Source: an uncultured Candidatus Saccharibacteria bacterium (GTDB lineage: Bacteria; Patescibacteriota; Minisyncoccia; Portnoybacterales; UBA2143). Taken from it: 64,000 nt of DNA. Of the stretch, positions 28,532 to 53,691 are shown piece after piece. Location of the stretch: positions 21,644 to 85,643 of the forward strand of contig CAYOHI010000002.1 of assembly GCA_964403725.1 (NCBI GenBank), read 5' to 3'. Both the position numbers and the translations under genes were made by a program. The notes beneath the pieces were generated by a model. The model was given only the letters and a program-made list of their open reading frames with translations. It was not told the origin of the DNA and did no database searches. The first letter of the stretch is position 1; every line of letters begins with the position of its first letter.

Positions 28532-28539
28532 TATAGATT

Positions 28540-29745: not shown

Positions 29746-29782
29746 AAATTAAAGGTCGGGGTTAATTAAAACAAGGGGAAAA

Positions 29783-30232: not shown

Positions 30233-30296
30233 ATTAATTATTGGTTAACAAAGGTCGAGTAATTAGATTTTAAATTTCATCTATTTACGAAAGGGG

Positions 30297-30758: not shown

Positions 30759-30800
30759 TTAGTTTTTAAACAGTCTGGTAACCAGAGACCTCATGAGATA

Positions 30801-32515: not shown

Positions 32516-32718
32516 TGCAGATAAAATTTAATAAAAAAATATACAGCTTAAAAGCTATAAAATTAGCCATTAAAGACTATCAGGGATTGGCTGATTTTAA
32601 TTTGGAGAAAAAAGGAGAATATATTTTAGTTAAATTAACTAAAATTGACAAAGAATACAAAGGAATAATTAAAGATGAATTCTGTAATTATATCCTTTCT
32701 TTAATGAAAACAGATTAA
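32515..32718 (+). CDS. small hypothetical protein (HxsD-position accessory candidate)
   Basis: 67 aa, overlaps the previous stop and lies 4 nt before the radical SAM gene. Assigned by position only. Confidence 0.3.
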   Translation: MQIKFNKKIYSLKAIKLAIKDYQGLADFNLEKKGEYILVKLTKIDKEYKGIIKDEFCNYILSLMKTD

Positions 32719-36308: not shown

Positions 36309-37688
36309 TTAGTACGAGAATGCGTTAAGATTAGTCGACAGATTGCGCATATGTTCTAGTGTATCAGATATTTCTTGATGAGAAGTTTTACAATTATATT
36401 TAATCCAGTCTTTGATAACGTTGCTCCAGTTTATAATATCTTTATCAATATATTTATTTCCAGTTTTTTTCTTAATCATATCAAATGACATTGAATTGGG
36501 GAGAGGCGTTAAATAGGACGGTACAATTAGATTATTAGGATCAGATTGTATTATTCTTTCAGCCAGTTTAATAGTCTTTTTAAGGCCTTTACTGGTTTCT
36601 CCAAGATTACCTAAGACAAAATAGCCTTCTATTGGAATTTTGTATTTTATTAATAACTCAACAGCTTTTTCATTCATGGCAGAAGTTGTTCCCTTGTTCA
36701 TAAGTTTGAGACAGTCGTCATCATTGCTTTCTATGCCGATGAATAGCTGTCTGACTTTTATTTCTGATAGTTTTTTAACTATTTTTTCATCAGCGAGATG
36801 ATTTATTCTTGCTTGAATTTTTAAATAAGGTGCATTCTTATATTTCTTTGCTTCTCTGTAGTATTTGTTAAACCATTTAATATCACCTAATAAATCATCT
36901 GTTGTTTCCCATATGTAATCAACTTTGTATTTAGAAGCTAGATTATTGTATTCAGACCAAACAGTAGCTGGGTCTTTGAAAATGTGTTCATTGTGCATCA
37001 ATGAGCAAAAAAGACACCATTTATTGTTATTCGCTCTCCAGGCACATCCTTTTTGAGAATAAGTGGTAAAAGGATTTTTGTAGTTTGAATGTGGAAAGTT
37101 TTTCTGATAGCTTTTAAAATATTTTTGAGGATCAATTATATCCTTGTTTATCTCTAATTTAGAAAAAGGAGTTATTATTAATTCATTAATCTTTATCTTA
37201 TCATTATCGCAATAGGCGATATTTTTTATTTCTGATAATTTTTTTTGAGTTATATATTCATAGAATGCTTTTTCTCCATCGCCGCGGATGACTATATCAA
37301 CGCAATAGTCTTTGGAATATATGCCTCTGTTCTTTAATATTTCCTGGTAAATTGAAGAAGGATAATGTCCGCCAAAGACCACTTTGGCTTTTATTTTTTT
37401 GCATTCTCTGGCTAGGATTAATGATTTTTCATATCCAGTAAACATCGATCCTATTCCTACGATGGTTGGTTTGAATTTTTTGATTTCTTTCTTTATTTCG
37501 TTGGTGGATAATAGCTGGTCATCCAGGATTAATAATGGAGTATTAGGTAGCTTTTCTTTGAGGTAGGATCCTATTATATTGACTCCCAAAGGAAAATGAG
37601 GTCCTTGTCGAAGTTCAAAGATATTTTTTGGTTTTGAATTGTAAGGCAGAGGATTAACTACGTTAATCAGTATTATTTTTTCTCCCAT
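36309..37688 (-). CDS. B12-binding-domain radical SAM protein (class B-like)
   Basis: N-terminal cobalamin-binding-like Rossmann region (IVGIGSMFTGYEKS..VVFGGHYPS). Then CAWRANNNKWCLFC (C-x9-C-x2-C) in the radical SAM core. Confidence 0.55.
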   Translation of the reverse strand: MGEKIILINVVNPLPYNSKPKNIFELRQGPHFPLGVNIIGSYLKEKLPNTPLLILDDQLLSTNEIKKEIKKFKPTIVGIGSMFTGYEKSLILARECKKIKAKVVFGGHYPSSIYQEILKNRGIYSKDYCVDIVIRGDGEKAFYEYITQKKLSEIKNIAYCDNDKIKINELIITPFSKLEINKDIIDPQKYFKSYQKNFPHSNYKNPFTTYSQKGCAWRANNNKWCLFCSLMHNEHIFKDPATVWSEYNNLASKYKVDYIWETTDDLLGDIKWFNKYYREAKKYKNAPYLKIQARINHLADEKIVKKLSEIKVRQLFIGIESNDDDCLKLMNKGTTSAMNEKAVELLIKYKIPIEGYFVLGNLGETSKGLKKTIKLAERIIQSDPNNLIVPSYLTPLPNSMSFDMIKKKTGNKYIDKDIINWSNVIKDWIKYNCKTSHQEISDTLEHMRNLSTNLNAFSY

Positions 37689-38599
37689 CCTCTTATTAAT
37701 CCTTTCTTTTTATAGCTAGTTTTGTCTTTTAGTTTATTTTTATTATGAGCTATTTTTCTGACATAGCATGAGACACATTCTCCACAATGATCATCATCCC
37801 ATTTAATGCAACTCCGAGCTCTATCTATCGGTATATCTTGATCTGTCGCCCATTTTAGTAAATCTGCTTTTGAGAGGAAAAAGCCAAATTCTTTTTCTAA
37901 TGGCAGGGAAGTGACTTGCCAGGAGTAGTCATTCATCAAAGAACAAACAGATAAGTTATTAGTTCTCATAGCTGTTAGTGTCTCATCTCTCATGACATAG
38001 CCATCTTCGGCAACAATGGCTGTAAAGATGTTTCTTACTTTGATATTTTCCTTGATCTTAAGGAAGATTGCGTATTGTACCCCATATGAAGTTAAAAGAT
38101 TAGTGTACATCGGGATCCCTAAATGTTGGCCTAGTTTATTAACTGGCTTGCTGGAAACATCAATGATTGGGAAGCGAATCTCCATCGGCGGGATATAGGC
38201 GTTCATTTTTTTAACTTTATGCCAATATTTAGGATATCTTTTTTTATAATATTTGGAAAAGTAGTCTACAGACTTTTCTTCAAAGGCAACTCTTTTTTGT
38301 CCTCTTCTTAAAAATACTGGATGAACGTGTACTTTATAGACTTCCATTAGATAAGCCCAGGTAGTGACGCTATCCATTCCTCCAGAAAACATTAATATTA
38401 CATGAGAATTAGCTAAGGGCCTTTTCATTACATGGCCTTTTTGTTCTTTAAATATATTTTCAATTGTCTGGATGAGCTTGGGGTCTTCTAATTTTCTTGA
38501 ATTTAAGAGATTTTGAATTTCTTTTTTTGTTTTTGTTTTGAATTTATTCATATTATTTCTTGATATAGTTTTGTTTGATAATTCCCTCCCACCAGTCAT
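37673..38599 (-). CDS. QueC-like PP-loop ATPase (7-cyano-7-deazaguanine synthase family) with N-terminal extension
   Basis: VILMFSGGMDSV PP-loop and C-terminal Zn-ribbon CIKWDDDHCGECVSCY matching the QueC C-terminal CxxC..CxxC. 308 aa, longer than typical QueC. Confidence 0.5.
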   Translation of the reverse strand: MTGGRELSNKTISRNNMNKFKTKTKKEIQNLLNSRKLEDPKLIQTIENIFKEQKGHVMKRPLANSHVILMFSGGMDSVTTWAYLMEVYKVHVHPVFLRRGQKRVAFEEKSVDYFSKYYKKRYPKYWHKVKKMNAYIPPMEIRFPIIDVSSKPVNKLGQHLGIPMYTNLLTSYGVQYAIFLKIKENIKVRNIFTAIVAEDGYVMRDETLTAMRTNNLSVCSLMNDYSWQVTSLPLEKEFGFFLSKADLLKWATDQDIPIDRARSCIKWDDDHCGECVSCYVRKIAHNKNKLKDKTSYKKKGLIRGWEKK

Positions 38600-39134
38600 T
38601 AGATTTTTGTTTTAGAATCTTATTACCTATTAATTTTCCATGTTTAGTAGTTAATTTCTTTACTGAGAAATTCATCCATTTCTTTGCTTCTTTTAATCCG
38701 TCATCATATTGCTGCTTTTCAGTCAGTAATTCTTCTAATATGTCTGCATCATGTATAATTTTAATTTCCTTGGTTTTGTTTTTTTGATATTCTTTAAAGA
38801 TATTATTAATATTTTTTTCGATAGGTAAATCTTTTAAAGTATCCTTTAGTGCCTTTAATTCATTTATTTTTAAATAGCATCTGTTAACCAGATCAGCATC
38901 GCCGGTTCTGGTTTCTGGAATGTCATGGAATAGGCACATTAGCAGGGTTTTTTCTATATCGGCTTTTTCCAGAGTGGCTAATATATAGCCTATAATAGTC
39001 ACGCGAAAACTGTGTTCAGCTATGGAATTTTTCTGTTTTTTTAATTTGCTTCTTGTTATTTTATTCAAATAGCCAACTTCAAAAAGAAAATCAGCTATCT
39101 TTTTTGTATTTAATTTTTTATTTCCATGGTTCAT
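38553..39134 (-). CDS. HD-domain phosphohydrolase (YfbR-like 5'-deoxynucleotidase family)
   Basis: H...HD....D signature: EHSFRV...LFHDIPETRTGD. Confidence 0.65.
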   Translation of the reverse strand: MNHGNKKLNTKKIADFLFEVGYLNKITRSKLKKQKNSIAEHSFRVTIIGYILATLEKADIEKTLLMCLFHDIPETRTGDADLVNRCYLKINELKALKDTLKDLPIEKNINNIFKEYQKNKTKEIKIIHDADILEELLTEKQQYDDGLKEAKKWMNFSVKKLTTKHGKLIGNKILKQKSNDWWEGIIKQNYIKK

Positions 39135-39669
39135 ATCTTATTAAGGGATTTAATTGATATTTTTTAAATTGGTCTTTAGTTTTTCTATCCATTGAATCAA
39201 GCAGAAAGCTAAAGCCAATGATCCTACCTCTTTTAATTCTTTTTATTAGCTTAATGGCAGCTTTGGCGTGCTGGCCAGTAGCAAACCAATCATCGATAAT
39301 CAGTATCCTGTCTTTTTTGTTGATTATATACTCATTGTCTTCAATTTCCAAAGCTTTTTTCTGTTTACTGTAATCAAAGAATGATTCAGTATATATTTTA
39401 TGCAGTTTCTTTATATGTGGATCAGGTGTATATATATTACCTTTTTTTCTTATGGTAACCAAACCAGCCTTGAGGATATATGCAACGCTTGAAGCAAGTA
39501 GGAAACCACGCGATTCGATTCCGATTACTTTAGTAATGTCTGATTTTAAAAATGGTTTTGCTAGTGATTTTGATATTTTTTGGAAAAGTAATTTATCAGA
39601 AATCGGGCTGTAAATAGAGCATTCCTCGTGCAATCTTATTATTTTTTCCTTATCTTTTTTGGTTAACAT
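39118..39669 (-). CDS. phosphoribosyltransferase (adenine PRTase-like)
   Basis: PRPP-binding motif ILIIDDWFATGQHA. Confidence 0.55.
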   Translation of the reverse strand: MLTKKDKEKIIRLHEECSIYSPISDKLLFQKISKSLAKPFLKSDITKVIGIESRGFLLASSVAYILKAGLVTIRKKGNIYTPDPHIKKLHKIYTESFFDYSKQKKALEIEDNEYIINKKDRILIIDDWFATGQHAKAAIKLIKRIKRGRIIGFSFLLDSMDRKTKDQFKKYQLNPLIRYEPWK

Positions 39670-40358
39670 ACTTCTATGCTGCCCAAGGCTATTTTAATGG
39701 CCTTATTTAAATATTTGTTAAAAGTTTTTTTATCTAAATATTTATGTTCAACTTTTTTGTTTTTGGTACTTATCTTATCTATTCCTACGAGTATGCTGTC
39801 GACGGATATTTTGTGTTTCTTGCCGAAATAGAAGAGAATGCTGCTTTCCATTTCTATTGCGCCTATTTTTTCTTTTTTCCATTTTTTGATATCACGAAGC
39901 AGATAAGGGTTGTAAAAAGCATCTACTGTAACAATTTTTTCTCCTTTTATTTCTTTGAAATTGCTGTTTGTGAGAATTGTTTTAATTGAGTTGTTTGTAT
40001 AATGCTTGGTGGTGCCGTCGTTTATCAATATAGATCTTGCAAATATTATATCGCCAAGTTTTTTATTATTGATAAAGCAGCATGAACCGATTCTGATTAT
40101 CTTTTTAATCTTATGCTGGGATAATAGTTCCTCTAATAGGATTGCAGCAGAAGGAGTTCCTATTCCACTAGACTGGATTGTTATTTTATTCTTCTTGTAG
40201 TATCCGGTATAAGCGCTAAAGCTGCGTTCTTTGATTATTGATTTGTAATTTTTTAAATATTTTTTAGCAATCAATTCAGCTCTTTCAGGATCTCCTACTA
40301 AAATTATTTTATCGCTGTAGTCCCTATTTTTGATTTTTAGGTGGAATTCCTTATTCAT
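39663..40358 (-). CDS. purine/uridine nucleoside phosphorylase family protein (PNP/MTAP/DeoD-like)
   Basis: ILVGDPERAELIA and SSGIGTPSAAILLEEL motifs of the PNP_UDP_1 fold. Confidence 0.55.
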   Translation of the reverse strand: MNKEFHLKIKNRDYSDKIILVGDPERAELIAKKYLKNYKSIIKERSFSAYTGYYKKNKITIQSSGIGTPSAAILLEELLSQHKIKKIIRIGSCCFINNKKLGDIIFARSILINDGTTKHYTNNSIKTILTNSNFKEIKGEKIVTVDAFYNPYLLRDIKKWKKEKIGAIEMESSILFYFGKKHKISVDSILVGIDKISTKNKKVEHKYLDKKTFNKYLNKAIKIALGSIEVC

Positions 40359-40360
40359 GA

Positions 40361-41605
40361 TTAGAAATTTATGAAATATATTTTAGAGGCGATTATTTCT
40401 TTAGTTTTATCTGTGAATTTTATATTTATTTTTTTAAAAAACATACTGTATTTATCTTTGAAGTATTCAGTATCTTTCTCTTTTTCTGCCAATACAGTGA
40501 CAACTAAATTATCCTTAGAAGTGATTAATTCTATGCCTGATTTGTCTTTGTATTTGTTTAAGAATTTTTCTTTGAATTTTAAGTTTCTCTGTATTTTTTC
40601 TTGGAATCCTTTTCTGCCTAGAGATAGTATGGTTAGAAGGGAGGCAACTGGCGAGATGGCAGTTCTAGTGGATAGTAGAGTGTTGTCGTTTCTGCTCAGA
40701 AAATCTATTGGCTCGGCGATCAGGTTTAATAGCTTTCTTCTGTGTAAGACTAATCCTGCTGGACAAGGGGTATGTCCAAATTTATGAAAATCAACGGCCA
40801 AGGCTTTGATTTCAGAATATTTGAAGGGAGAGAAACTGTTGTCTGTAAACGGATTAATCAAACCGCTCATGGCAGCATCTATCCAGCAAAAGAATTCTAC
40901 ATGTTTGTATTCTTTTTTGATTGCTCTGATAGTTTGTACTGTTTTCTCTATATTATCATCTGTGCCAGTTAGGGTGTATCCTAGGGTTAAGGGAATGATA
41001 AATCCTTTTATGTCTTTCTTGATTAATTTCTTTATTTTCTTTGATAAATCAAAACAATCTAGGTTCCACTCCTTTTCATTTACAGCAATGATTTCATTTT
41101 TAATGCCCACTATTTTGGCTGATTTTCTGATAGAATAGTGAGTTAAATTATTACTCAAGAATCTGATTTGATTAAAGTCTATCTTTTTCTTTCTTAGCCA
41201 GTCTCTTGCCAACCAGGCAGAAAATATGTTTCCTTCTGTTGAGCCGGTGGTTGAATAGCCTGTTAAGTCTCGGTCTTTGGCGTTATACAGATCTATCATT
41301 TTAAAAACTAATTCTTTTTCAATCGATTCATTGGTTGTTTCAGAATATTCTGATTCGGTTGTATTGCCCAATAGTACGGGATTGTGCTTGATTAGGTCTT
41401 GCCAAGCTTTGATAGATATCTGGGATGGGGTTGATACTAAATGGGCGATTTTAGCTGATTTTCTAAATTCTTTTAAATGTTTTTTAAGTTTTTGTATTTT
41501 AAGCTCTATATTCTTCTTTGTTTCTGGGTTTTTATTAAAATTAAATCCATCATTATTGTTGTGATTGGATTTTGGTAATAAGTTTTTTTTAGGTTGTTTT
41601 TTCAT
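40361..41605 (-). CDS. PLP-dependent group II decarboxylase-like protein
   Basis: GYSTTGSTEGNIFSAW and DFHKFGHTPCPAGLVL resemble the fold-type I decarboxylase Gly-rich and HK (PLP-Lys) regions. Confidence 0.45.
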   Translation of the reverse strand: MKKQPKKNLLPKSNHNNNDGFNFNKNPETKKNIELKIQKLKKHLKEFRKSAKIAHLVSTPSQISIKAWQDLIKHNPVLLGNTTESEYSETTNESIEKELVFKMIDLYNAKDRDLTGYSTTGSTEGNIFSAWLARDWLRKKKIDFNQIRFLSNNLTHYSIRKSAKIVGIKNEIIAVNEKEWNLDCFDLSKKIKKLIKKDIKGFIIPLTLGYTLTGTDDNIEKTVQTIRAIKKEYKHVEFFCWIDAAMSGLINPFTDNSFSPFKYSEIKALAVDFHKFGHTPCPAGLVLHRRKLLNLIAEPIDFLSRNDNTLLSTRTAISPVASLLTILSLGRKGFQEKIQRNLKFKEKFLNKYKDKSGIELITSKDNLVVTVLAEKEKDTEYFKDKYSMFFKKINIKFTDKTKEIIASKIYFINF

Positions 41606-41734: not shown

Positions 41735-42580
41735 ATGATGTTAAATATTAAAAAAATTAGGGTTAAGAAAATAATATCGCCGACAAATCTGGCTAATAGC
41801 GATTATGGCATAGATCCCTATGTCGGCTGCGAGATCGCCTGTTCTTACTGTTATGTCAGGTATATAGGCGATAGTAATGATAATAAGTGGGGCTCTTATG
41901 TTTTTGTTAAAGAAAATGCTCCTGATTTGATTATTGAAGATAAGGCTTATGATAATAAGACAATATCCATTGGAACCTTAACTGATCCTTATCAATTTGC
42001 AGAGAAAGAGTATGAAGTTACTAGAAAAATTTTGGAAAAATTAATTTCTTTTAACTCAGAGATCGCAATAATTACAAAATCTGATTTGGTTTTAAGAGAT
42101 ATTGATCTATTAAAGAAATTTAAAGATATTATTGTAGCTATTTCATTATCCTATGTTGATGACAAGATAAGGAAGGAATTAGAGCCAAAGGCTATAAGCA
42201 CAGAAAAGAGGATTAAAGTCTTAAAAGAATTGCATAGTAATGGGATAAAAACAGCTTTATTCATAGATCCAATATTTCCTGGCATTACTGACTGGAAAAA
42301 ACTTGTAAAATCTACCAGAAGTTATGTCGATAAATATCTATTTGAAAATCTGAATATCTATCCATCAACAGAAAATATTATCTTTAGCTTCCTTAAAAAG
42401 AATAAGCCAGAATTAATTGATGAATATAAGGAAATCTATTCAGACGAAAAGAAATATTGGCGAGGAATCGAGAGTGATATTAAGGATTATTGTGAAAAAG
42501 AAAAGATAAATTACGTTTCAACCATATTAAATTATTATAAATACTATCATTCAGATAGATTTTCTAGTAATAAGAAATGA
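41735..42580 (+). CDS. radical SAM protein, SplB/COG1533-like (DNA-photolyase-type radical SAM fold)
   Basis: SPTNLANSDYGIDPYVGCEIACSYCY (CxxxCxxC) near the N-terminus, as in SplB-family enzymes. Confidence 0.6.
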   Translation: MMLNIKKIRVKKIISPTNLANSDYGIDPYVGCEIACSYCYVRYIGDSNDNKWGSYVFVKENAPDLIIEDKAYDNKTISIGTLTDPYQFAEKEYEVTRKILEKLISFNSEIAIITKSDLVLRDIDLLKKFKDIIVAISLSYVDDKIRKELEPKAISTEKRIKVLKELHSNGIKTALFIDPIFPGITDWKKLVKSTRSYVDKYLFENLNIYPSTENIIFSFLKKNKPELIDEYKEIYSDEKKYWRGIESDIKDYCEKEKINYVSTILNYYKYYHSDRFSSNKK

Positions 42581-43452
42581 AAATAATATCAGGTTTTTCA
42601 AAAATAGAAGAAGTAAGTAATTTAATCAACAGAGGGGCTTCTGTTTTATTTTGTGGAATTTTATCAGAAGCTTTTAATAATCACAGGCCTAAATTGGCTC
42701 TTTTTAATTTGAAAGATTTAAATGAGTTAAGAAAAGCGACTAAAATAACGCATGATTTAAAAAAAGAAATATATGTTGTCGTTAATGCCATGGATTATGA
42801 AGACAAAGATAGAAAGAATGTTATTAAAGAGCTTAAGAAAATCGAGAGAATTAACGTTGATGGCCTAATAGTTTCAGACATCTCCATTCTCATGCTTATT
42901 AAAGAGAATGATATAAAAATTCCTGTGAGCTTGAGTAGCGTAGCTGCCTGTTATAATTCCATGGCTATTAAATTCTACGAGGATTTGAATGTCAGCTCCA
43001 TTATCCTGCCCCAGCAAATATCAGCTCCTGAAGTCAAGAAGATAAAAGAGTTAACCAATTTGCCCTTGGAAGTCTTTTATCGCAATAGCATGTTCAATAC
43101 CTGCCAGCAAGTGGATGGAATGTGTCTGTTATGCAATGTAATAGATCGCAAGAAATTCATTGTCAGGCCTAGAAGCAGTACAGATAGATTTAATGTTAAG
43201 TGCTTGAGGGGTAATAAGAATAATTTGGGCAGTTTAATCAAAGGCAATATTGATAGCGAGTTAAGATATATCTATGATACATATAATATAGGAGTGGAAT
43301 ATGTAAAAATGGGAGAAAGAGGATTGAAATCAGAATCTAAATACTTGGCAGTTGATATATTATCAAAGGTTATAAAAATACTAGGCAAGCATCCTAGTAA
43401 AAAAATGTTTATTAAAGAAGCAAAGGACATATGGAAAGAATTATATTGCTAG
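42577..43452 (+). CDS. peptidase U32-family protein (UbiU/RlhA-like large subunit candidate)
   Basis: N-terminus resembles the U32 'ELLAPAG..AGADAVYFG' start. EVFYRNSMFNTCQQVDGMC matches the U32 E-x-F...C-x4-G-x-C signature. Confidence 0.45.
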   Translation: MKIISGFSKIEEVSNLINRGASVLFCGILSEAFNNHRPKLALFNLKDLNELRKATKITHDLKKEIYVVVNAMDYEDKDRKNVIKELKKIERINVDGLIVSDISILMLIKENDIKIPVSLSSVAACYNSMAIKFYEDLNVSSIILPQQISAPEVKKIKELTNLPLEVFYRNSMFNTCQQVDGMCLLCNVIDRKKFIVRPRSSTDRFNVKCLRGNKNNLGSLIKGNIDSELRYIYDTYNIGVEYVKMGERGLKSESKYLAVDILSKVIKILGKHPSKKMFIKEAKDIWKELYC

Positions 43453-44195
43453 ATAAAGTTAAAAACTACCAAGAGATCAAAGATTTTGATCGTGTCTATC
43501 TTGGCAATGAATTTTGTCAGAATTTAATACCGACATTAAGCGATTTTAAATTACAAGTTAAAAAAATAAAGGATAAGGATTTTAGTTTTGTAACTCCGTT
43601 TGTAATTGATAAGAATATCAGTAAGCTGGAAAGGATATTCAAGTATTTAGACAAGGAATATGATGAGCCAGAGGTGATTGTAAATGATTTAGGAATACTA
43701 TATCTTCTTCACGAAAACTATCCAAAGATTAAAAAAGTATTTGGCAGAATATTGTATCCAAATATTTTCCTAAAGCCAAAAGATGAAATAATTAAGATTA
43801 AATCAAAATCTACAATTGAGTTGTTTAAGAAATATAATATAGATAGATATGAATTATCTGTTAAAAAATCAGATTTAACGCTTAATATTTTGGATAAACA
43901 AGTTAAATCAGAAAAAATGTTTAAGGATTTGAAATTCTCGCTCTATTATCCATACTTTCCAGTTTCAGTTACCAGAAAATGCAAGATGAGAAATCAGAAA
44001 GGCTTTGATGACTATGGAGCTTGCCAGCATGGATGTGCTGATAATCTATATGAAATAAAATACTCAGATTACCTTTGTCGGCACGCCATGGTTAATGATA
44101 AGATTTATATGAAAGGCAACGCATATTTTATCAAAAGCAAGAAACCAGCTAATATATCTAAATTAATATCCAGATTAGTTTTTCAATCAATGTAA
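43431..44195 (+). CDS. small U32-family protein (UbiV-like partner candidate)
   Basis: VYLGNEFC near the N-terminus (like UbiV VIYLGE..C). C-terminal C-x13-C-x3-C (CKMRN...GACQHGC) resembling the UbiV Cx12Cx3C [4Fe-4S] ligands. Confidence 0.4.
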   Translation: MERIILLDKVKNYQEIKDFDRVYLGNEFCQNLIPTLSDFKLQVKKIKDKDFSFVTPFVIDKNISKLERIFKYLDKEYDEPEVIVNDLGILYLLHENYPKIKKVFGRILYPNIFLKPKDEIIKIKSKSTIELFKKYNIDRYELSVKKSDLTLNILDKQVKSEKMFKDLKFSLYYPYFPVSVTRKCKMRNQKGFDDYGACQHGCADNLYEIKYSDYLCRHAMVNDKIYMKGNAYFIKSKKPANISKLISRLVFQSM

Positions 44196-44199
44196 TTTT

Positions 44200-45405
44200 A
44201 TGAAAATCATTAAAGATTTAGAAAAAATAGAAAAAAGGAATAAAGATTTCTTGCATTTGACAGCTAATGAGAATGTAATTTCAAATACGGCCAGGAAATA
44301 TCTATCTTCTGAATTAGGTAATAGGTATTTTTTAGGATCAGGGAAAAAAGGAATTGTTAGGAATAAAGCTTTGGAACTGTTGGGCTTGGAAGAAGTAGAT
44401 AAATTAGTAAATAAGGCTGAAGGATCTGCCAATAAGATACTAGGAGCATCACTGACATCTTTTAATCTTTTATCAGGAATCAATGCGATGACATCTCTAA
44501 TGCTAGCGATTTCCAAGCCAAATGATGTAATCATGACCTTGAACCCTGATTTTGGGGGTCACTTCATAACCAAGTCGATAATTGAAAGAATTGGACGCAA
44601 GCAGATTGTTACCCAGCACAAAGATAATGGAGAAATAGATATTAAAAAAACAGTAGACTTGTTAAACAAAAATAAATCTAAGGTATTGTACTTAGACAGT
44701 ATGTCAGTTTTAAATAGATTTCCATTGTCTGAAATTAGATCTATGATGAAAAATGAAGGTAGGTTAATTTTTGATGCAAGTCATACTATGGGATTGATTA
44801 TGGGAGGTCAATATCAATCTCCGCTAAAAGAAGGAGCTGATATTATTGTTGGTAACTCACATAAAACATTTCCCGGACCGCACAAGGCGATAATTGCTTT
44901 TAAGAATAAGAATTATGGAAAAAGAGTTATGTCTGTGATTAACAATTGTCTGATTTCTACTGTTCAAACGAGTAATCTAATAGCCTTGGCAATAACTGTT
45001 TTAGAAATGGAAAAGTTTGGCAAATCATATGCCAAGCAAATAATGTTGAATTCCCAAAAATTGGCAAAAGAAATAGAGAGCAAAGGCTATGACCTGATTA
45101 GATCTTCTAATAACAGCTATACTTATAACCATCAGATACATATTTCATTTAAAAATATTAAGGATTCAAAAACACTAATGGATAGTTTTTATAAAAACAA
45201 TATCAGTATTAATGTCATTAAACCTGGTCAGCCAAATTCATTTATAAGATTAGGAACTCAAGAGATTACTCGAAGAGGGATGAAGGAAAAAGATATGATA
45301 AAAATCGCTGAGTTTTTTGATAAATCTATTAAAAGAGAAAATATTAAAAACGAGGTCTTGAGGTTCAATAAAAAGTTTAAAAAGATACATTATTCTTTTG
45401 ATTAA
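44200..45405 (+). CDS. serine hydroxymethyltransferase-like PLP-dependent enzyme (fold type I)
   Basis: HLTANENVIS (cf. ELIASEN), DFGGHFITKS (cf. GGHLTHGS), NSHKTFPGP (cf. THKTLRGP, PLP-Lys). Confidence 0.55.
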   Translation: MKIIKDLEKIEKRNKDFLHLTANENVISNTARKYLSSELGNRYFLGSGKKGIVRNKALELLGLEEVDKLVNKAEGSANKILGASLTSFNLLSGINAMTSLMLAISKPNDVIMTLNPDFGGHFITKSIIERIGRKQIVTQHKDNGEIDIKKTVDLLNKNKSKVLYLDSMSVLNRFPLSEIRSMMKNEGRLIFDASHTMGLIMGGQYQSPLKEGADIIVGNSHKTFPGPHKAIIAFKNKNYGKRVMSVINNCLISTVQTSNLIALAITVLEMEKFGKSYAKQIMLNSQKLAKEIESKGYDLIRSSNNSYTYNHQIHISFKNIKDSKTLMDSFYKNNISINVIKPGQPNSFIRLGTQEITRRGMKEKDMIKIAEFFDKSIKRENIKNEVLRFNKKFKKIHYSFD

Positions 45406-46333
45406 GATGAATAAAATTAAGATTTTAACCCCGATTGATAATGTTGATGAATTTGAATTACTATCATCAGCTGGTGCTGATGAATTCTATTGCGGGGTCA
45501 TTATAAATGACAAAAAATATAACAGCGATAGAATTGGAAAACAGAAACAGGAAAATATTTCTGGGATCAGTGAATTGAAGAAATTAGTCAAAAAGATAAA
45601 AGATAATAAAAAAGATTTGTATCTAGTTTTGAACGCCCAATACTTATCTTCAAGAGATATAAATGAAGCTGGAAGAAGAATAGATGCCTTTAAGAAAATA
45701 GGAATAGATAATTATATAGTATCTAACTTGAATCTAATAGATAAGGTAAAGGATAAGGATATCAATATCATTATCAGTTCCTTTTTAGAAGCTAAAAATG
45801 TCGAAACGGTAAAATTTCTCAAGAAATTCAAGCCAAAGAGAATCATATTAGACAGGCAGATTACAGCCAGTGATTTAAAAGCCATAACATCTGAATTTCC
45901 AAGATTAGAATTTGAAACATTTATCATGGAAGCAGCATGCCGGAGCCTGGACAGTTACTGCAACCGACATATTTTCAACTATAAAAAACATACTTGTAGA
46001 GAAAATTTCAAAATAGACAACAAGAAAGGATTAACAAGGTCAGAATTGAATACGATTACTTCAAGATTAAAGATGCCGATTGTTAATTGCGGTATTTGCG
46101 CTTTATACCAATTTAGGAATTTAAATGTTGAATCGGTTAAGATAGTAGGGCGCGGCTATCCAACTAAATGGAAAGTTAAAAATGTTAAGCATGTCAGAGA
46201 TGCCTTGGGCGTATTAAATGACACTAAGAGCAAAAAAGAATATCATCAGAAATGCCTAAGTCTGTTTAAGAAAACTTATAATTTCCCTTGTAATAAAGAG
46301 TATTGCTATTACCCTCATTTTTTTAAAAATTAA
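45398..46333 (+). CDS. peptidase U32-family protein (second large-subunit candidate)
   Basis: ILTPIDNVDEFELLSSAGADEFYCGV start, FETFIMEAACRS...C and CGICALYQF Cys-containing segments. Confidence 0.45.
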   Translation: MIKMNKIKILTPIDNVDEFELLSSAGADEFYCGVIINDKKYNSDRIGKQKQENISGISELKKLVKKIKDNKKDLYLVLNAQYLSSRDINEAGRRIDAFKKIGIDNYIVSNLNLIDKVKDKDINIIISSFLEAKNVETVKFLKKFKPKRIILDRQITASDLKAITSEFPRLEFETFIMEAACRSLDSYCNRHIFNYKKHTCRENFKIDNKKGLTRSELNTITSRLKMPIVNCGICALYQFRNLNVESVKIVGRGYPTKWKVKNVKHVRDALGVLNDTKSKKEYHQKCLSLFKKTYNFPCNKEYCYYPHFFKN

Positions 46334-46337: not shown

Positions 46338-47051
46338 ATGGAAAATGTCTTGTTAATCAACAGAATAGAAGATATTAAATTATTAACCGATAAGTATTCT
46401 CGTGTTTATCTTGGCAACGAGTTCTGTTCTAGATTGTTGCCGACTGAATCTGAGATAAAGAAGATATTAGCTGTAGTTAAGAAAGAAAAACTAAAATTAA
46501 CTATTGTCACATCATTTGCCGGTGAAGATGAATTAAAAAAGATAAAGAAGTTTTTTAGCATAGTTAATAAGCATGAGATGTTAGATGAAGTAGTTGTAAA
46601 TGATTATGGAATCTTGAATCTTTTAATCAATAAATATCCAAAAGTTAAATTGGTTGCTGGCCGGGCTCTATCAAGATTCTATAATTTTGATAAAAAGAAT
46701 TATTTGTATGATAAGATTGGAATAAGGAGGTTTGAATTCGATAGTAATCGCATTAATGAAGATGCTTTAAAAAATATATCTTCAGTAAAATTTTCCTATT
46801 ATCATCCCTATTCTATCCTGAATACGACGCGCTATTGTTCAGTAGTAGACAAGAAAAACAAAAGTAGTAATATTGGTATTCTAAAATGCAATCAGGAATG
46901 TCAAAAAATCGGTTCTCTAAAGCTGAAAAACAAGCTTATTAGAAACAAATTAACTCTTAGAGGAAATGCAATATTTATTAATAATAAAGAAGATAAGTTA
47001 AAAGTCATAAAGAATATTAAAGCGATCGATCGTTTAGTATTTCAAAATTAA
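46338..47051 (+). CDS. small U32-family protein paralog (second UbiV-like candidate)
   Basis: RVYLGNEFCSRLLP and C-x16-C-x3-C (RYCSVV...ILKCNQEC). Paralog of 43431..44195. Confidence 0.4.
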   Translation: MENVLLINRIEDIKLLTDKYSRVYLGNEFCSRLLPTESEIKKILAVVKKEKLKLTIVTSFAGEDELKKIKKFFSIVNKHEMLDEVVVNDYGILNLLINKYPKVKLVAGRALSRFYNFDKKNYLYDKIGIRRFEFDSNRINEDALKNISSVKFSYYHPYSILNTTRYCSVVDKKNKSSNIGILKCNQECQKIGSLKLKNKLIRNKLTLRGNAIFINNKEDKLKVIKNIKAIDRLVFQN

Positions 47052-47905: not shown

Positions 47906-48974
47906 TATGAAAATAGCTTTATTTTGCTCATCAAGAAATAGGATTCCATCAATCAAGACTGGCGGCACTGAACAGCCAATTTACTATTTGGCTAAAACTT
48001 TAGCTGAGCGTAAGCATGATGTCACGGTTTTTGCCGCTAAAGGATCAAGAATACCAAAAGTAAAAGTAAAGGAGATATCGCCTTTCGTGACTTTTGCTAA
48101 GCAAAAATTCTTAAATCTCCAAGAAAGGATTTCCAGCTTTTACGACTTGTCTGCCTTGGCTGATTTTTTCCACAATGAAGCTGATAAATATGATATCATT
48201 CAATTCAACAGCTATATATTCTATGAAATATTACCCTTTCTTAAATTAACTGAAAAGCCAGTAATAATTAGGATTAACTATCCTCATAATCTGATTTATC
48301 CATATATTAAAGATGAGTTGTTAAAGTATAAAAATGTTCATTACCTGCCAATATCTAAATTTATAAAATCAGCTATGCCAGACTTGAATTATTTGAATCC
48401 GATTTATCCAGGAATAGATATTAATGATTTTAAATACTCTGCAAAACACAAAGACTATTTACTATTCATAGGACGAGTTTGTCATAATAAAGGTGCTCAT
48501 CTGGCAATTGAAGTCGCTAGGAAAACTAATAATAAATTAATAATTGCTGGAAGGATTGATCAGGAAGACGGAGATAAATATTATAAAGAAGAAGTAGAGC
48601 CATATTTAAATGATAAAATACAATATATAGGAGAAGTGGATTTTAAAACTAAAGTAAAATTATACCGAGGAGCAATAACTACTTTATTCCCAATTCTCTG
48701 GGATGAGCCCTTTGGCAATGTTCCAATTGAATCCATGGCTTGTGGTACGCCAGTAATAGCGTTTGATAGAGCTGCCATGAAAGAATCAGTCAAAGATAAG
48801 CTTAGTGGGTTTTTAGTTAAAAATATCAGCCAAATGATTAAAAAGGTTAGTGAAATAGAGAAAATAGATAGAGAAAAAACAAGGAAGTGGGCAATTGATA
48901 ATTTTTCTAATGAAATAATAACTGATAAATATATTAAATCATACAAAAAGTTAAATGATAAAAAAACCGATTAA
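47898..48974 (+). CDS. family-1/4 glycosyltransferase (GT-B)
   Basis: EPFGNVPIESMACGTPVIA matches the GT4 E-x7-E motif. Confidence 0.7.
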   Translation: MNNMKIALFCSSRNRIPSIKTGGTEQPIYYLAKTLAERKHDVTVFAAKGSRIPKVKVKEISPFVTFAKQKFLNLQERISSFYDLSALADFFHNEADKYDIIQFNSYIFYEILPFLKLTEKPVIIRINYPHNLIYPYIKDELLKYKNVHYLPISKFIKSAMPDLNYLNPIYPGIDINDFKYSAKHKDYLLFIGRVCHNKGAHLAIEVARKTNNKLIIAGRIDQEDGDKYYKEEVEPYLNDKIQYIGEVDFKTKVKLYRGAITTLFPILWDEPFGNVPIESMACGTPVIAFDRAAMKESVKDKLSGFLVKNISQMIKKVSEIEKIDREKTRKWAIDNFSNEIITDKYIKSYKKLNDKKTD

Positions 48975-49809
48975 ATCCTTGCATTGGAGTGTAAACCGGA
49001 CTTGTAATTATAATTGCACCTACTGCGTGTCAGGCAACAGAAAGAGAAGTTTTTCTCCACATCCTAAGCTTTTCTTAAGTGAATTGGAAAAGCATCTTAA
49101 AGGAAGTTGGTTGATTCTTTTTACTGGTTCAGGTGAACCGTTCTTGACTCCAGATTTTCTTTCTATCGTAAACAAGCTTGTTAAGATGGGCCATAAAATT
49201 GGGGTAATAACTAATTTTTCATCATCATTAGACGACTTGGTAAAATTTTGCAAAATCACTAAAGGAAATTTACATGAGTTTGGCGCCAGCCTGCATCTTG
49301 AGAAAGTTGATGTGAATGAATTCATTGAAAAAGCTAAGGTCATTAATGATTTAACTGATGGTCTTCTAATAGTCAGGTCGGTAGCCGTTAAAGACAAAGT
49401 AAAAGAAATCTATAATATTGGTGAAAGATTTAAAAAAGAAGGTATAAAGTTTAGCTTGCAATTACAAAGAGTTCATGATCGAAAGTTAGGTGATAAAGAC
49501 AATCCCTATGTTAATTACAATAAGGAAGAAAAAAATATATTAAAGAGTTTAGGAAAGTTTCATTATAATAAGGATAATCTTAGATTTAAAGGCAAAAGGT
49601 GCTGGGCCGGTATCAAATATTTATCAATTAGCGAGGATGGTGAGGTTTGGAAGTGTCTTCCAGCAAGACGCTATAAGTTAAGCCAGGAAGATTATTTAGG
49701 CAATGTACTGGATAAAAGTTTTAAATTAAAAAAAGAACCTGACGTTTGTAGATACAATTATTGTTACTGTTTAGACGCATATATGAATAACATTGTCATT
49801 AACGATTAA
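48955..49809 (+). CDS. radical SAM protein (paralog A)
   Basis: VNRTCNYNCTYC (CxxxCxxC) and GSGEPFL. C-terminal CRYNYCYC. Confidence 0.65.
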   Translation: MIKKPIKSLHWSVNRTCNYNCTYCVSGNRKRSFSPHPKLFLSELEKHLKGSWLILFTGSGEPFLTPDFLSIVNKLVKMGHKIGVITNFSSSLDDLVKFCKITKGNLHEFGASLHLEKVDVNEFIEKAKVINDLTDGLLIVRSVAVKDKVKEIYNIGERFKKEGIKFSLQLQRVHDRKLGDKDNPYVNYNKEEKNILKSLGKFHYNKDNLRFKGKRCWAGIKYLSISEDGEVWKCLPARRYKLSQEDYLGNVLDKSFKLKKEPDVCRYNYCYCLDAYMNNIVIND

Positions 49810-50706
49810 TTGCATATGAATAAGATAGAAAATCACAAAAGAAAAAACAGGAGAAAACCGGTTAAATCTGTTAATTGGAATATCTCTGGAATTTGCAACT
49901 ACGATTGTAGTTATTGTGTCAGTAAGCCGGGTTTAAACAAGAAGATTTCTTATCCAGATCCATATGGATTTTTAGATATGTTTTCAAAAAAGTTAAAAGG
50001 AAGCTGGCGTTTTCATTTGGCTGGAAGCGGAGAACCTCTTTTGGTGCCTAATTTTTCAAAGATAGTTAGCGAACTAACAAAAATGGGACATGGAATTTAT
50101 ATCTCTACTAATTTTTCTTTGCCTTTAGAAAAACTTTTAGAAATTTGCAATGTTGCCAATAGGGATAATTTGTGGCTTTCTGTAAGTTTGCATCTTGAAT
50201 TTGCTGATGTTGATGATTTTTTTAAAAAAGCAATTGAAGTTAGAAAGAATATCGGGTATAGATTTTCAGCTACCTCAGTGGCTAGGAAAGATCAAGTATC
50301 AAAACTTAAAGAAATAGGTAATCGTTTTAGAAAAGAAAAAATTAGATTCATAATGCGACCAGAAAGGACTGTCAATAATACGGCTCAGCCATTTGTTGAT
50401 TATAGTAAAAAAGAATTGGATATCATTAGTAAATTCAACAAGAAAAAAGTTTTTTTTGATGAAAGTATTTCCAATTTAAAAGGTAAGCTGTGTCTGGCTG
50501 GAAGTAAATATTTCATAATTTCTGAAAAAGGTGATGTTTGGCGATGTTTTCCAGCAGCTAGACACAAAGATAAAAATGGTTATCTGGGCAACCTATTGAA
50601 GGGTGATTTTGAATTAAAGAAAGATCCTTCTGTTTGTCCTTATGAAAATTGCTATTGTCGATTGCCTATTACTAATAATTTGATTGTAGATGATATAGAT
50701 TTATGA
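49810..50706 (+). CDS. radical SAM protein (paralog A', tandem duplicate of the previous)
   Basis: SGICNYDCSYC and GSGEPLL. C-terminal CPYENCYC. Collinear similarity with 48955..49809. Confidence 0.65.
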   Translation: MHMNKIENHKRKNRRKPVKSVNWNISGICNYDCSYCVSKPGLNKKISYPDPYGFLDMFSKKLKGSWRFHLAGSGEPLLVPNFSKIVSELTKMGHGIYISTNFSLPLEKLLEICNVANRDNLWLSVSLHLEFADVDDFFKKAIEVRKNIGYRFSATSVARKDQVSKLKEIGNRFRKEKIRFIMRPERTVNNTAQPFVDYSKKELDIISKFNKKKVFFDESISNLKGKLCLAGSKYFIISEKGDVWRCFPAARHKDKNGYLGNLLKGDFELKKDPSVCPYENCYCRLPITNNLIVDDIDL

Positions 50707-51629: not shown

Positions 51630-53691
51630 TGGAGTTGGACTGGGTCATTTAAAGAGGGTTAGTTTGGTTGCAGAAAATTTTAAATCAGAAAAGATCGAGA
51701 TAATATTGGCAACTTCATCAAAAAAGCCTAATGCTTTTGGTAAATTCTATAACCACCTTATTAAATTACATCCAATTTCAAACAAAATAATAAAAAGTAG
51801 TTCAGAGAATTTAGATAAAAGACAGAAAAACAAAGAGATTCTTTTGAAATCTTTTAAGAAATTTAAACCAGACTTAGTAATAGCTGATTTTCTCCTGAAT
51901 TCTTGGGAATTTACTTTTCATCCTCTAAGAAGTGCTTTAGATAAGTTTAAAACTAGAGCTGTTTTTGTTTGGCGATTCAAAGATTTTAAGAATTTAGATG
52001 ATGACTTAGATAATAAGGAAGTCAGGAATAAATTAAGGTATTTTGATAAAATTGTAATCTCTCATGACGAAGATGAAATGAAATATCTCTTATCTTCAAA
52101 AGCCCTAAAGAAGATAAAAGATATTCCAAATGCTGAAATTTGCGGACCGATTATTCAAGATTTAGATAAGGATAAAATAAAAAAGACACGCTCAAGGCAC
52201 AAGATATCCAGTGAGGATTTCTTGATAACAGTTACTCTAGGAGCCGGAGGCGTACTAAAAGAAGGTAGTTGTGAGTCGGCTAAAAAAATTGTTGATAATT
52301 TTTTAGCCATTCATAATAGATTAATTAAAAATACCCCAAATCTAAAAGCAATAATCGTTACTGGTCCATATTTTAAAAATACAGAAAAGAAGAAATTTCC
52401 AAAATTAAAATTTGTTAAATTTGAAAAGAATCTACCAGAATTATTATCCCTATCTAATCTAGTTATTTCTGCTGCCGGGTATAATACTTGCAATGAGATT
52501 ATACAAGCAAAAACCCCAGCCATTTTGATTCCGTTATTAAGAGGCAGTAATGAGCAATTTGAAAGAGCCAAGTATCTAAGGAAAAAAGGAATAGCTCTGG
52601 TTCCTAGGAATAATTCTTCAGATGAACTTTTTAATTCAATAATGGATTCCAAAGCGAAAAAGAGGAAATCTTTCAATTTGAAACCAGGAAACAAGAAAGC
52701 AGCTGAAATAGCCTTAAATTTATTAAATGAAAACAATAGGGATTTAAAAGATAATCCATACTTGCCTGATGATAAGGATTTTTTTGATACTGATAAAGCA
52801 AAAATTAAGATAAATTTCAAAAAGAATAAATCCAAACCGAAATTCAGTATTGTTATTCCGACATATAATAAGAAAGAAAGCTTGGAATTCGTTCTGAAAA
52901 GTTTTTTTAATCAAGGTTATCCAAAATCAAAATATGAAATAATAGTCATAGATGACGGTAGTAATGATAATACTTTGGAAATGATAAAAAAACTCAAACC
53001 GACCTGTAATTTCAAATATATCTATTGGCCAAGAAAAAATATAAAAGTCAAAAAGGAGCACAGAAGATTCGCTAAATTCTATAACCGAGCCGGATTAGCC
53101 AGAAATATTGGCATTAAGTATTCAAAAGGAAATATCATTTTATTCAACGACTCAGATATTTTGACAGATAAGGATTGTTTAAAGAAACACAAGAAATATC
53201 ATAGCAAATATTCAAACATAGTAGTTCGTGGATATAGGATGCTTTTGCCAAAGGAATTCAATATTAAAAAAAATAATGATTTAACATTGATTAAGAAAAG
53301 CTCTGTCCAAGAGAAACCTAAAGATGAAACCAAGCTTCATTGTCGAATGTATGACTTATCAAAAGAAGGATGGCAAAGAATTGTTACTTGTAATTTATCA
53401 ATAAAGAAAAAGTATCTTGAAGAAGTAAATGGTTTTAGTAAGGATTTTGTTTTTTGGGGATTTGAAGATGTTGATTTGGGTTATAGATTAAAGAAATTAG
53501 ATTTAAAATTCATTTGGGATGAAAAGATAAAGGTATATCATATCTGGCATCCAAGAGAAGCGGGGAAAAAGAAAAAGGACTTGGAAGCTTTTAAAATAGG
53601 TGCTAATATTCTTTATAACAAGCATAAAGACTGGGAAATAATTAATATTTTTACAGACGTCATAAAACGACGTTTTGGTAAGTTATTATGA
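51601..53691 (+). CDS. bifunctional glycosyltransferase: N-terminal GT-B (MurG/GT28-like) fused to C-terminal GT2
   Basis: N-terminal AANGVGLGHLKR and ISAAGYNTCNEI (GT28 C-terminal-like). C-terminal FSIVIPTYNK..IIVIDDGSNDNT (GT2 DxD) and FWGFEDVDLGYR. Confidence 0.6.
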   Translation: MKRILLYAANGVGLGHLKRVSLVAENFKSEKIEIILATSSKKPNAFGKFYNHLIKLHPISNKIIKSSSENLDKRQKNKEILLKSFKKFKPDLVIADFLLNSWEFTFHPLRSALDKFKTRAVFVWRFKDFKNLDDDLDNKEVRNKLRYFDKIVISHDEDEMKYLLSSKALKKIKDIPNAEICGPIIQDLDKDKIKKTRSRHKISSEDFLITVTLGAGGVLKEGSCESAKKIVDNFLAIHNRLIKNTPNLKAIIVTGPYFKNTEKKKFPKLKFVKFEKNLPELLSLSNLVISAAGYNTCNEIIQAKTPAILIPLLRGSNEQFERAKYLRKKGIALVPRNNSSDELFNSIMDSKAKKRKSFNLKPGNKKAAEIALNLLNENNRDLKDNPYLPDDKDFFDTDKAKIKINFKKNKSKPKFSIVIPTYNKKESLEFVLKSFFNQGYPKSKYEIIVIDDGSNDNTLEMIKKLKPTCNFKYIYWPRKNIKVKKEHRRFAKFYNRAGLARNIGIKYSKGNIILFNDSDILTDKDCLKKHKKYHSKYSNIVVRGYRMLLPKEFNIKKNNDLTLIKKSSVQEKPKDETKLHCRMYDLSKEGWQRIVTCNLSIKKKYLEEVNGFSKDFVFWGFEDVDLGYRLKKLDLKFIWDEKIKVYHIWHPREAGKKKKDLEAFKIGANILYNKHKDWEIINIFTDVIKRRFGKLL

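Follow-up and report, generated by a model that had tools for sequence, protein, structure and literature searches.

The window analysed here is a stretch of 64,000 nucleotides from an uncultured Candidatus Saccharibacteria bacterium (assembly GCA_964403725.1, contig CAYOHI010000002.1, positions 21,644 to 85,643 of the forward strand). A gene at 44200..45405 (+) lies in a plus-strand operon together with genes for U32 proteins and radical S-adenosylmethionine (rSAM) enzymes. Its product is predicted to have the fold of serine hydroxymethyltransferase (SHMT), to carry pyridoxal 5'-phosphate (PLP) and to work without folate, and it belongs to a lineage resembling the L-threonine transaldolases (TTAs), of which ObiH is the structurally characterised reference used throughout. 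The protein is referred to below as the TTA-like protein. Judged by its sequence, it is new and uncharacterised and falls within the SHMT superfamily on the branch that resembles the threonine transaldolases.

The gene and its product

The following features were annotated in the gene.

44200..45405, + strand: ATG-started open reading frame (ORF) of 401 aa, predicted SHMT-fold, folate-independent PLP enzyme of the TTA-like lineage
44326..44382, + strand: loop 1 (Y43-L61), equivalent to ObiH Y55-P71 and to the folate-binding/catalytic loop of SHMT YAEGYPGKRYYG, with an insertion of ~7 residues
44863..44865, + strand: codon of K222, the predicted PLP Schiff-base lysine in S-H-K-T
45205..45249, + strand: loop 2 (~residues 336-350), shortened, with the folate-binding Asn of the SHMT 'NKN' motif lost (N347 to I340), ending at the carboxylate-binding R350

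The first-pass annotation had recognised ANEN, GGHF and HKTFPGP motifs of the SHMT kind, and the translation does contain them, as LTANEN (residues 20-25), FGGHF (118-122) and SHKTFPGP (220-227). The whole length of the protein is covered by a match to the Pfam SHMT family PF00464, with E = 3.4e-25 and 89 bits (cutoff 27). In a phmmer search of PDB sequences, ObiH (7k34) came first at 1.4e-46, followed by an archaeal SHMT at 3.8e-43 and by bacterial SHMTs at ~1e-27. An AlphaFold2 model of the TTA-like protein, built from 56 homologs, reached a mean pLDDT of 94.2 and a pTM of 0.92, and its top Foldseek match was again 7k34 (TM 0.89-0.90). The second-best PDB match, by sequence as well as by fold, was the SHMT of M. 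jannaschii. PF01212 (Beta_elim_lyase), the family of the classical L-threonine aldolases, gave no match in the Pfam results up to E = 1.

The gene is tightly packed into its operon: it starts after a gap of 4 nt behind the preceding gene's stop codon, and 1 nt separates its own stop codon from the ATG of the following U32 gene. Promoter and terminator scans around the gene returned matches at the level of shuffled sequence only. An antisense ORF within the gene (44187-44534, 115 aa) is a shadow ORF.

Active site, phylogeny and relatives

Residues were compared in an alignment of E. coli K-12 GlyA, ObiH, the M. jannaschii SHMT (MjSHMT) and 241 homologs (244 sequences). Every residue that holds PLP or the substrate carboxylate is retained in the TTA-like protein.

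Y43: E. coli Y55, ObiH Y55, kept
H121: E. coli H126, ObiH H131, kept
D192: E. coli D200, ObiH D204, kept
H195: E. coli H203, ObiH H207, kept
H221: E. coli H228, ObiH H233, kept
K222: E. coli K229, ObiH K234, kept
R350: E. coli R363, ObiH R366, kept

K222 is invariant across the 241 homologs. With GlyA (PF00464, PRK00011) the protein thus has in common the fold, the dimer-type active site, the T/S-H-K-T lysine motif, the stacking His, the Asp and the carboxylate-binding Arg. In contrast to GlyA, it lacks the Glu, the Tyr-Tyr pair and the Asn of the folate reaction: in E. coli numbering, E57 is replaced by L45, Y64/Y65 by E59/L60 and N347 by I340. Further replacements affect S35 (N23), L127 (F122), T226 (N219) and R235 (H228). 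These four positions are likewise changed in ObiH (N, F, N and Q) and in P0164, a proxy for fluorothreonine transaldolase (FTase) that passes the FTase equivalog cutoff with 810 against 650 bits. The loss of E57 and N347 and the substitutions N35, F127 and N226 are common to the TTA-like protein and the TTAs.

The likeness to the known TTAs (ObiH/ObaG, 7k34; FTase; and the threonine:uridine-5'-aldehyde enzymes of the LipK/CapH type) extends beyond these substitutions. The fold is shared (TM 0.90 to 7k34), as is the catalytic set of ObiH, namely H131/D204/K234, Y55/R366 and the H324/Q325 pair. In ObiH, H324/Q325 form hydrogen bonds to H207/R366, a motif that has been highlighted for TTAs (PMC8072733). 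The pair is present in our protein as H311/Q312, and bacterial SHMTs carry Leu instead of the Gln. Because His-Gln occurs in archaeal SHMT too, this feature is not exclusive to TTAs. ObiH and LipK (the latter compared by its description) are, like our protein, single-domain enzymes in a specialised cluster. Differences concern the aromatic mobile-loop residues of ObiH, which are absent from a loop 1 with its own sequence and length, and the C-terminal aldolase-II-like domain of FTase, which is missing. The hosts of known TTAs are actinomycetes or pseudomonads and the neighbouring genes are those of nonribosomal peptide synthetases or nucleoside antibiotics, whereas here the host is an anaerobic uncultured member of the Patescibacteria and the neighbours are U32, rSAM and His-Xaa-Ser genes.

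The comparison with transaldolases that the first-pass annotation proposed came out in their favour also at the level of family models. The NCBIfam FTase model TIGR04506 scored 280 bits, over the SHMT-like domain only, and the NCBIfam SHMT model NF000586 scored 196.9 bits, under its cutoff of 335. Membership in the FTase equivalog itself was rejected: the protein has a single domain of 401 aa, 280 bits compare with a threshold of 650, and the match covers positions 10-406 of a 609-position model. Identities were 32% to the FTase proxy, 30% to ObiH, 29% to MjSHMT, 26-29% to genuine glyA products of Patescibacteria and 24.5% to E. coli GlyA, in line with the earlier remark that the protein is otherwise divergent from SHMT.

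Neighbour-joining (NJ) trees place the TTA-like protein in a large clade that is characterised by N35, the absence of E57, F127-T129 and N226, and that includes P0164. All SHMTs bearing E57 (bacterial, Patescibacteria and archaeal-type) fall outside it. The separation from bacterial glyA received a bootstrap of 100, and the clade uniting the protein with ObiH to the exclusion of E57-bearing SHMTs received 64. A scan of species-representative (GTDB) genomes retrieved no close relative, its matches being canonical glyA genes with 24-37% identity; it did yield 20 full-length loci at 24-34% identity, which served as controls. Nineteen of these 20 carry the complete signature S35-E57-Y64-Y65-L127-T226-R235-N347, and 12 of the 19 are Patescibacteria. 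Genuine glyA hence exists in the phylum, and the TTA-like gene represents a separate paralog lineage. The host itself is placed among the Patescibacteria by the valyl-tRNA synthetase encoded in the window, whose closest named relatives (67-75% identity) come from Portnoybacteria, Nealsonbacteria, Paceibacterota and 'Patescibacteria group' genomes. A metagenome scan found distant relatives only (26-39% identity).

These data bear directly on the possibility that the gene is a divergent but functional housekeeping glyA. The first-pass annotation had named fully conserved folate-binding residues as the mark of such a gene; E57, Y64, Y65, N347, S35, T226 and R235 are all replaced. The full-length Pfam match, the SHMT labels that JGI attaches to several homologs and the lack of a second SHMT-like gene within the 64-kb window could be quoted for a glyA, yet they are opposed by the replacement of E57, Y64, Y65 and N347, by a score of 197 bits against the curated cutoff of 335, by the position of the full-signature Patescibacteria glyA in another clade (bootstrap 100) and by the 1-4 nt packing inside a U32/rSAM operon. 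Residue test, curated cutoff and phylogeny led to the rejection of this explanation, which we regard as highly improbable. An archaeal-type SHMT dependent on a pterin (tetrahydromethanopterin-like) is just as improbable. MjSHMT is the second-best PDB match and has S-H-Q, Q235 and other features in common with our protein, but it and its relatives keep S35, E57, Y65, S226 and N347, none of which is found here, and the NJ trees put our protein beyond the E57-bearing archaeal-type group. This candidate too was discarded, as such enzymes retain E57, Y65 and N347.

A protein search returned 719 homologs at E <= 1e-10. Relatives at 44-73% identity were found in rSAM-rich clusters in 8 independent loci.

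P0002: 73% identity, locus L008, rSAM-rich cluster
P0003: 62% identity, locus L004, rSAM-rich cluster
P0008: 53% identity, locus L042, rSAM-rich cluster
P0004, P0005, P0006 and P0009: 51-54% identity, loci L007, L044, L057 and L043 respectively, rSAM-rich clusters
P0084: 44% identity, locus L056, rSAM-rich cluster

At least ~110 homologs among the matches listed (P0010-P0120) have 43-49% identity and stem largely from Patescibacteria. They are annotated as SHMT (by JGI as 'glycine/serine hydroxymethyltransferase') or as DegT/DnrJ aminotransferase, and the alignment shows that they, too, are without E57, Y64/Y65 and N347. Two of them (loci L009 and L010), on contigs of 434 kb and ~1.08 Mb, lie in ordinary surroundings with no cluster. 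Their sequences suggest that these homologs are likely a mis-annotated family of folate-independent SHMT-like paralogs found throughout the Candidate Phyla Radiation (CPR). The cluster clade differs from the CPR-wide paralogs at Ec64 (E. coli position 64; D/E vs T), Ec346-347 (V/I-I/L vs F-D/E) and Ec175 (M vs S), and the differences in the loop positions are consistent with a recruitment into the cluster accompanied by a changed substrate. In the wider clade, two fusion proteins were seen: P0137 (789 aa) joins a Gfo/Idh/MocA-type dehydrogenase to a TTA-like domain and P0158 (829 aa) joins an ATP-grasp domain to one, which hints at coupled pathways of the 'oxidise then aldol' and 'aldol then ligate' type.

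The strongest competitor of a transaldolase is a folate-independent retro-aldolase. Such an enzyme would cleave threonine or another beta-hydroxy amino acid into glycine and an aldehyde, either for glycine supply or for degrading or trimming a beta-hydroxy amino acid of the pathway, for example a modified Ser or His of a repeat protein (HxsA4, see below). SHMTs have an intrinsic, folate-independent threonine aldolase activity, the active-site evidence is identical for both reactions, and CPR paralogs at 43-49% identity in non-cluster contexts would suit a simple metabolic role and could be the source of a recruitment. Since a His-Gly-Ser repeat protein and an enzyme resembling histidine decarboxylase are encoded in the cluster, modified free amino acids are possible intermediates. 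Against a retro-aldolase, the closest characterised relatives (FTase and ObiH) are transaldolases, PF01212 is not matched, and the cluster clade differs from the CPR paralogs exactly at positions of the acceptor/folate pocket (Ec64, Ec346-347), which suggests a new substrate. On balance we consider the retro-aldolase rather unlikely.

The operon and the His-Xaa-Ser module

The genes around the TTA-like gene and further genes that the argument needs are listed below; for genes given by one coordinate this is the start of the gene.

6254-7213, - strand: housekeeping TsaD (Pfam 319 bits)
32108-32515, + strand: HxsD (NCBIfam 56.5 vs cutoff 50)
32515-32718, + strand: HxsD-like (NCBIfam 78 vs 41)
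32722-34173, + strand: HxsB, rSAM-SPASM protein (NCBIfam 527 vs 370)
34238-34558, + strand: HxsA4 repeat protein, 106 aa (NCBIfam 72 vs 55), with an N-terminal transmembrane segment and ~17 His-Gly/Ser-Ser repeats
36309-37688, - strand: B12-binding rSAM
37673-38599, - strand: QueC-like PP-loop protein
38553-39134, - strand: HD 5'-deoxynucleotidase-like
39118-39669, - strand: APRT-like
39663-40358, - strand: DeoD/PNP-like
40361..41605, - strand: group II PLP decarboxylase, closest to histidine decarboxylase, divergent from the plus-strand operon
41735..42580, + strand: first gene of the plus-strand operon, rSAM closest to the 'mobile pair protein B' / PA0069 families
42577..43452, + strand: U32 protein a, closest to TrhP/UbiU (Pfam PF01136, 88 bits; NCBIfam TrhP/UbiU below cutoff)
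43431..44195, + strand: Cys-rich partner a of the U32 protein, with a YLGNEFC motif, invariant C29/C184/C202 and a TIM-barrel-like model
45407..46333, + strand: U32 protein b (PF01136), alternative TTG start at 45398
46338..47051, + strand: Cys-rich partner b, following U32 protein b and sharing 37% identity with partner a
47054, + strand: rSAM
47898, + strand: family 4 glycosyltransferase (GT4)
48955-49809 and 49810-50706, + strand: STM4011-family rSAM paralogs
50703, + strand: rSAM-SPASM
51601, + strand: GT28C-GT2 fusion
53688-54707, + strand: divergent TsaD/Kae1-like protein
54704-55306, + strand: Sua5/TsaC (TsaC cutoff passed, 154 vs 123 bits)
55303, + strand: rSAM
57544, + strand: APH/choline-kinase-like kinase
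56648, 58266 (double), 60167, 61021 and 61941, + strand: HxsC-like rSAMs, region to 62870

The plus-strand operon spans 41735 to beyond 62870. It starts with an rSAM, U32-a and its partner, the TTA-like gene, U32-b and its partner, an rSAM, GT4 and two STM4011-type rSAMs, and continues with an rSAM-SPASM, the GT28C-GT2 fusion, the TsaD-like gene, Sua5, two rSAMs, the small kinase and five HxsC-like rSAM units. Altogether the cluster in the window (~32-63 kb) holds ~15 rSAMs. The earlier description of the gene as lying between U32 pairs is essentially correct: PF01136 proteins at 42577-43452 and 45407-46333 are each followed by a Cys-rich partner. That it does not sit with folate genes was borne out among the window genes scanned with Pfam and NCBIfam, none of which is a folate gene; ~14 smaller ORFs (2-27 kb) were inspected by eye only. 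In a scan with PADLOC defence HMMs (hidden Markov models), neither the TTA-like protein nor the genes next to it gave a match; elsewhere there were only weak matches to QueC/QatC and to viperin-like rSAMs.

Among the known prephenate-dependent, O2-independent U32 hydroxylases (UbiU/UbiV, TrhP, RlhA), the flanking U32 proteins match TrhP/UbiU best, and the arrangement of each U32 protein with a following Cys-rich protein recalls the UbiU-UbiV heterodimer. The U32 scores are, however, far below the UbiU/TrhP equivalog cut-offs, and the partners are only marginally U32-like. The partners had no Pfam match at the window and only a remote likeness to U32: 3 of 12 members of the partner family match PF01136 (best E 0.0068), and hhalign gave a probability of 11%.

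The HD, APRT-like and DeoD/PNP-like genes all score under their equivalog cut-offs. Their products probably salvage the 5'-deoxyadenosine and adenine that arise from the many rSAM enzymes. A nucleoside-antibiotic (LipK-like) pathway, as suggested by the PNP, phosphoribosyltransferase, HD and QueC-like genes, was considered and downgraded, since the DeoD-, APRT- and 5'-deoxynucleotidase-like genes fit such a salvage. Genes of the LipL/LipO/LipM/LipN type were not seen in the window.

The TsaD-like protein of the cluster is only 28.6% identical to the housekeeping TsaD 47 kb away, so that the cluster Sua5/TsaD-like pair is a dedicated second set. This suggests carbamoyl-adenylate chemistry resembling that of N6-threonylcarbamoyladenosine (t6A) on a substrate other than tRNA.

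The HxsD, HxsD-like, HxsB and HxsA4 genes connect the cluster to the HXS antiphage system, a system of four genes (HxsD-HxsB-HxsC-HxsA) described in 2026, of which 99.7% of the instances occur in Pseudomonadota (PMC13128918). HxsB and HxsC mature its HxsA, a protein of 5 repeats with a peptidoglycan-binding domain; in E. coli the system was shown to block phage DNA entry (PMC13128918). The window likewise encodes HxsD, HxsD-like, HxsB, an HxsA-type repeat protein and several HxsC-like rSAMs, the latter all below the HxsC cutoff (best, the gene at 61941, with 189 bits vs 268). In contrast to the four genes and 5 repeats described, there are ~25 further genes here, and HxsA4 has ~17 repeats and an N-terminal transmembrane segment; the described system contains no PLP enzyme, whereas here a TTA-like enzyme is joined to the module. 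Overall, the region from 32 to 63 kb resembles the four-gene HXS system in a greatly expanded form specific to Patescibacteria. The first-pass annotation, which holds as far as the enzyme class is concerned, missed the place of the operon in an expanded His-Xaa-Ser system, and this alters what the pathway may produce.

Several observations concern the module and its surroundings. The gene at 58266-60170 (+) encodes one 634-aa protein with two tandem HxsC-like rSAM domains and stands among four further HxsC-like paralogs; an amplification of this kind is unusual for a single rSAM family. Directly after the last HxsC-like gene, a polytopic membrane protein is encoded at 62864-64000 (+), where it runs off the end of the window. 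By eye, its motifs 'SYQDTKYGKV' and 'AAGDAKLF' resemble the aspartate motifs of A24 prepilin peptidases/GxGD proteases, and no PDB sequence match was obtained; it is a candidate for the protease that processes HxsA4. A type IV pilus operon (22234-31592, +) directly precedes the Hxs module, with PilM, PilB/T-type ATPases, PilC, a prepilin peptidase and two nearly identical pilin genes (29783-30232 and 30297-30758). The order of pilus genes followed by Hxs genes is also found in L004 (11351-15120). The G+C content is 29-34% across the cluster (36000-64000) and 34-39% in the housekeeping part (1-30000); the low-G+C cluster region is possibly a genomic island. The window contains four tRNA genes, at 7.3 kb and 18.7-20.6 kb.

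Companion genes were scored in a BLASTP presence/absence matrix over the 8 related loci and two CPR-wide control loci. The only gene of the window cluster shared by all 8 related loci is the TTA-like gene. Its most frequent companion is the STM4011-family rSAM (6 of the 8 loci), which is adjacent to it in L007, L043, L044 and L056. An ortholog of the group II PLP decarboxylase adjoins the TTA-like gene in L008 (70% identity) and L004 (61%), and in L042 a non-homologous decarboxylase of the ornithine/diaminopimelate type and a PALP enzyme lie directly upstream of it. The U32 protein with its partner recurs in L008 and L042, the Hxs module in L004 and L042 (with HxsA4-like repeat genes at 8252-8635, -, and 2162-2626, +, respectively), and the Sua5 and TsaD-like pair in L007, L043, L044 and L056. 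None of these companions was present in the two control loci. The notion of an SHMT-fold enzyme of specialised clusters is thereby strengthened, as close relatives are embedded in such clusters repeatedly.

A second cluster archetype is seen in L007 (P0004), L043 (P0009), L044 (P0005) and L056 (P0084). Its order is a Wzm/Wzt-type ABC exporter, three rSAMs, the TTA-like gene, an STM4011-like rSAM, a PQQ-like beta-propeller protein (~1130-1185 aa), a metalloenzyme/sulfatase-like protein, Sua5, a TsaD-like protein, an ATP-grasp protein and an rSAM. The product of this archetype is probably exported or located on the surface.

Proposed reaction and significance

The TTA-like protein is a specialised pathway enzyme and not an ordinary glycine/serine enzyme, as indicated by its location in a very large cluster of rSAM and His-Xaa-Ser repeat-protein genes. 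With moderate confidence, its sequence features point to a folate-independent, PLP-dependent aldol enzyme of SHMT fold from the lineage of the L-threonine transaldolases (FTase, ObiH, LipK type). TTAs cleave L-threonine into acetaldehyde and a PLP-glycyl quinonoid (PMC10495429, PMC8072733), and relatives of ObiH down to 27% identity are strict L-threonine transaldolases (PMC10495429). The loops that bind folate in SHMT are thought to set the acceptor specificity in TTAs (PMC10495429).

The scenario that follows is inferred as regards the reaction direction, L-threonine as donor, what the aldehyde is and where it comes from, and the later steps. PLP would be held by K222 as internal aldimine, with H121 stacked on the ring, D192 contacting the pyridine nitrogen, Y43 of the partner subunit contacting the PLP phosphate and R350 binding the substrate carboxylate. 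A beta-hydroxy amino-acid donor, most likely L-threonine, would be cleaved in a retro-aldol step into acetaldehyde and the PLP-glycyl quinonoid, and the quinonoid would attack an aldehyde made by the cluster, forming a new C-C bond in an acceptor pocket shaped by the two remodelled ex-folate loops. In an anaerobe the aldehyde would come from rSAM or U32 chemistry rather than from an oxygenase. The product would then probably pass to the divergently encoded PLP decarboxylase (40361-41605), a candidate for decarboxylating the beta-hydroxy amino acid to a 1,2-amino alcohol, to the cluster Sua5/TsaD-like pair, or to both. Because the product would be a threonine analogue, the Sua5/TsaD-like pair could activate and transfer it. 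The final product would probably be part of, or attached to, the output of the expanded HxsA4 rSAM system.

Several points weigh against a transaldolase and temper our confidence in it. Identity to characterised TTAs is only 30-32%, and the node uniting the protein with the FTase proxy has an NJ bootstrap of 19, the inner nodes of the tree being weakly supported. The mobile-loop aromatics F59/W68/F70 of ObiH correspond to S47/L58/L60, and ObiH E107 corresponds to M97. No activity on the tested aryl aldehydes was seen for some TTA candidates at a similar distance, among them one from the FTase cluster (PMC10495429). A transaldolase with a persistent quinonoid and a plain retro-aldolase look alike at the sequence level, and the PNP, APRT and HD genes, a possible hint of a nucleoside acceptor, are better explained by the salvage of rSAM by-products. 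As to the ObiH residues missing here, E107 is not conserved among active TTAs, and loop 1 and E107 vary between TTA clusters (PMC10495429); since these positions vary among active enzymes, their replacement would indicate a different acceptor and a place outside the ObiH subfamily, not outside the TTA class.

The unusual loops and setting also leave some room, if little, for another reaction of the PLP quinonoid (Mannich-type, Claisen-type or alpha-alkylation) or for a donor other than threonine (Gly, Ser or a pathway-specific beta-hydroxy amino acid). No characterised enzyme has similar loops for the second substrate, the uncharacterised clade is a large one, and the chemistry of the cluster, with its ~15 rSAMs and its U32 hydroxylases, is exotic; all characterised members of the folate-independent lineage, however, are threonine-dependent transaldolases (PMC10495429, PMC8072733). 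We consider such a reaction doubtful.

If the TTA-like protein is a transaldolase, a more specific and decidedly speculative role can be formulated. The enzyme could be core to the expanded His-Xaa-Ser system and make a threonine analogue from an rSAM- or U32-derived aldehyde; the analogue could be activated as N-carboxy-adenylate and transferred by the Sua5/TsaD-like pair (t6A-like ureido chemistry), or be decarboxylated to an amino alcohol, and could decorate the ~17-repeat HxsA4 surface protein or its glycan. In a bolder variant, the acceptor would be a peptide-bound aldehyde, e.g. a formylglycine derived from Ser of the HGS repeats by a SPASM rSAM. If this were true, PLP-dependent C-C bond formation on a ribosomal protein would have its first example.

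The SHMT annotation of hundreds of related CPR proteins is probably wrong, and metabolic reconstructions that include them as glyA would overstate the one-carbon and glycine metabolism of the CPR. L-threonine transaldolases are so far known almost exclusively from actinomycetes and pseudomonads (PMC8072733); with its different acceptor loops, a large clade from anaerobes would broaden the enzyme pool for making beta-hydroxy amino acids. The gene also marks a ~30-kb cluster that joins a His-Xaa-Ser system to ~15 rSAMs, O2-independent hydroxylases, glycosyltransferases and a second t6A-like pair. For an organism with a tiny genome, ~30 kb is a striking investment, and the product probably matters to the cell surface, to defence or to the interaction with a host. 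The enzyme itself is of moderate interest, and it gains in interest from its expanded His-Xaa-Ser/rSAM setting in Patescibacteria.

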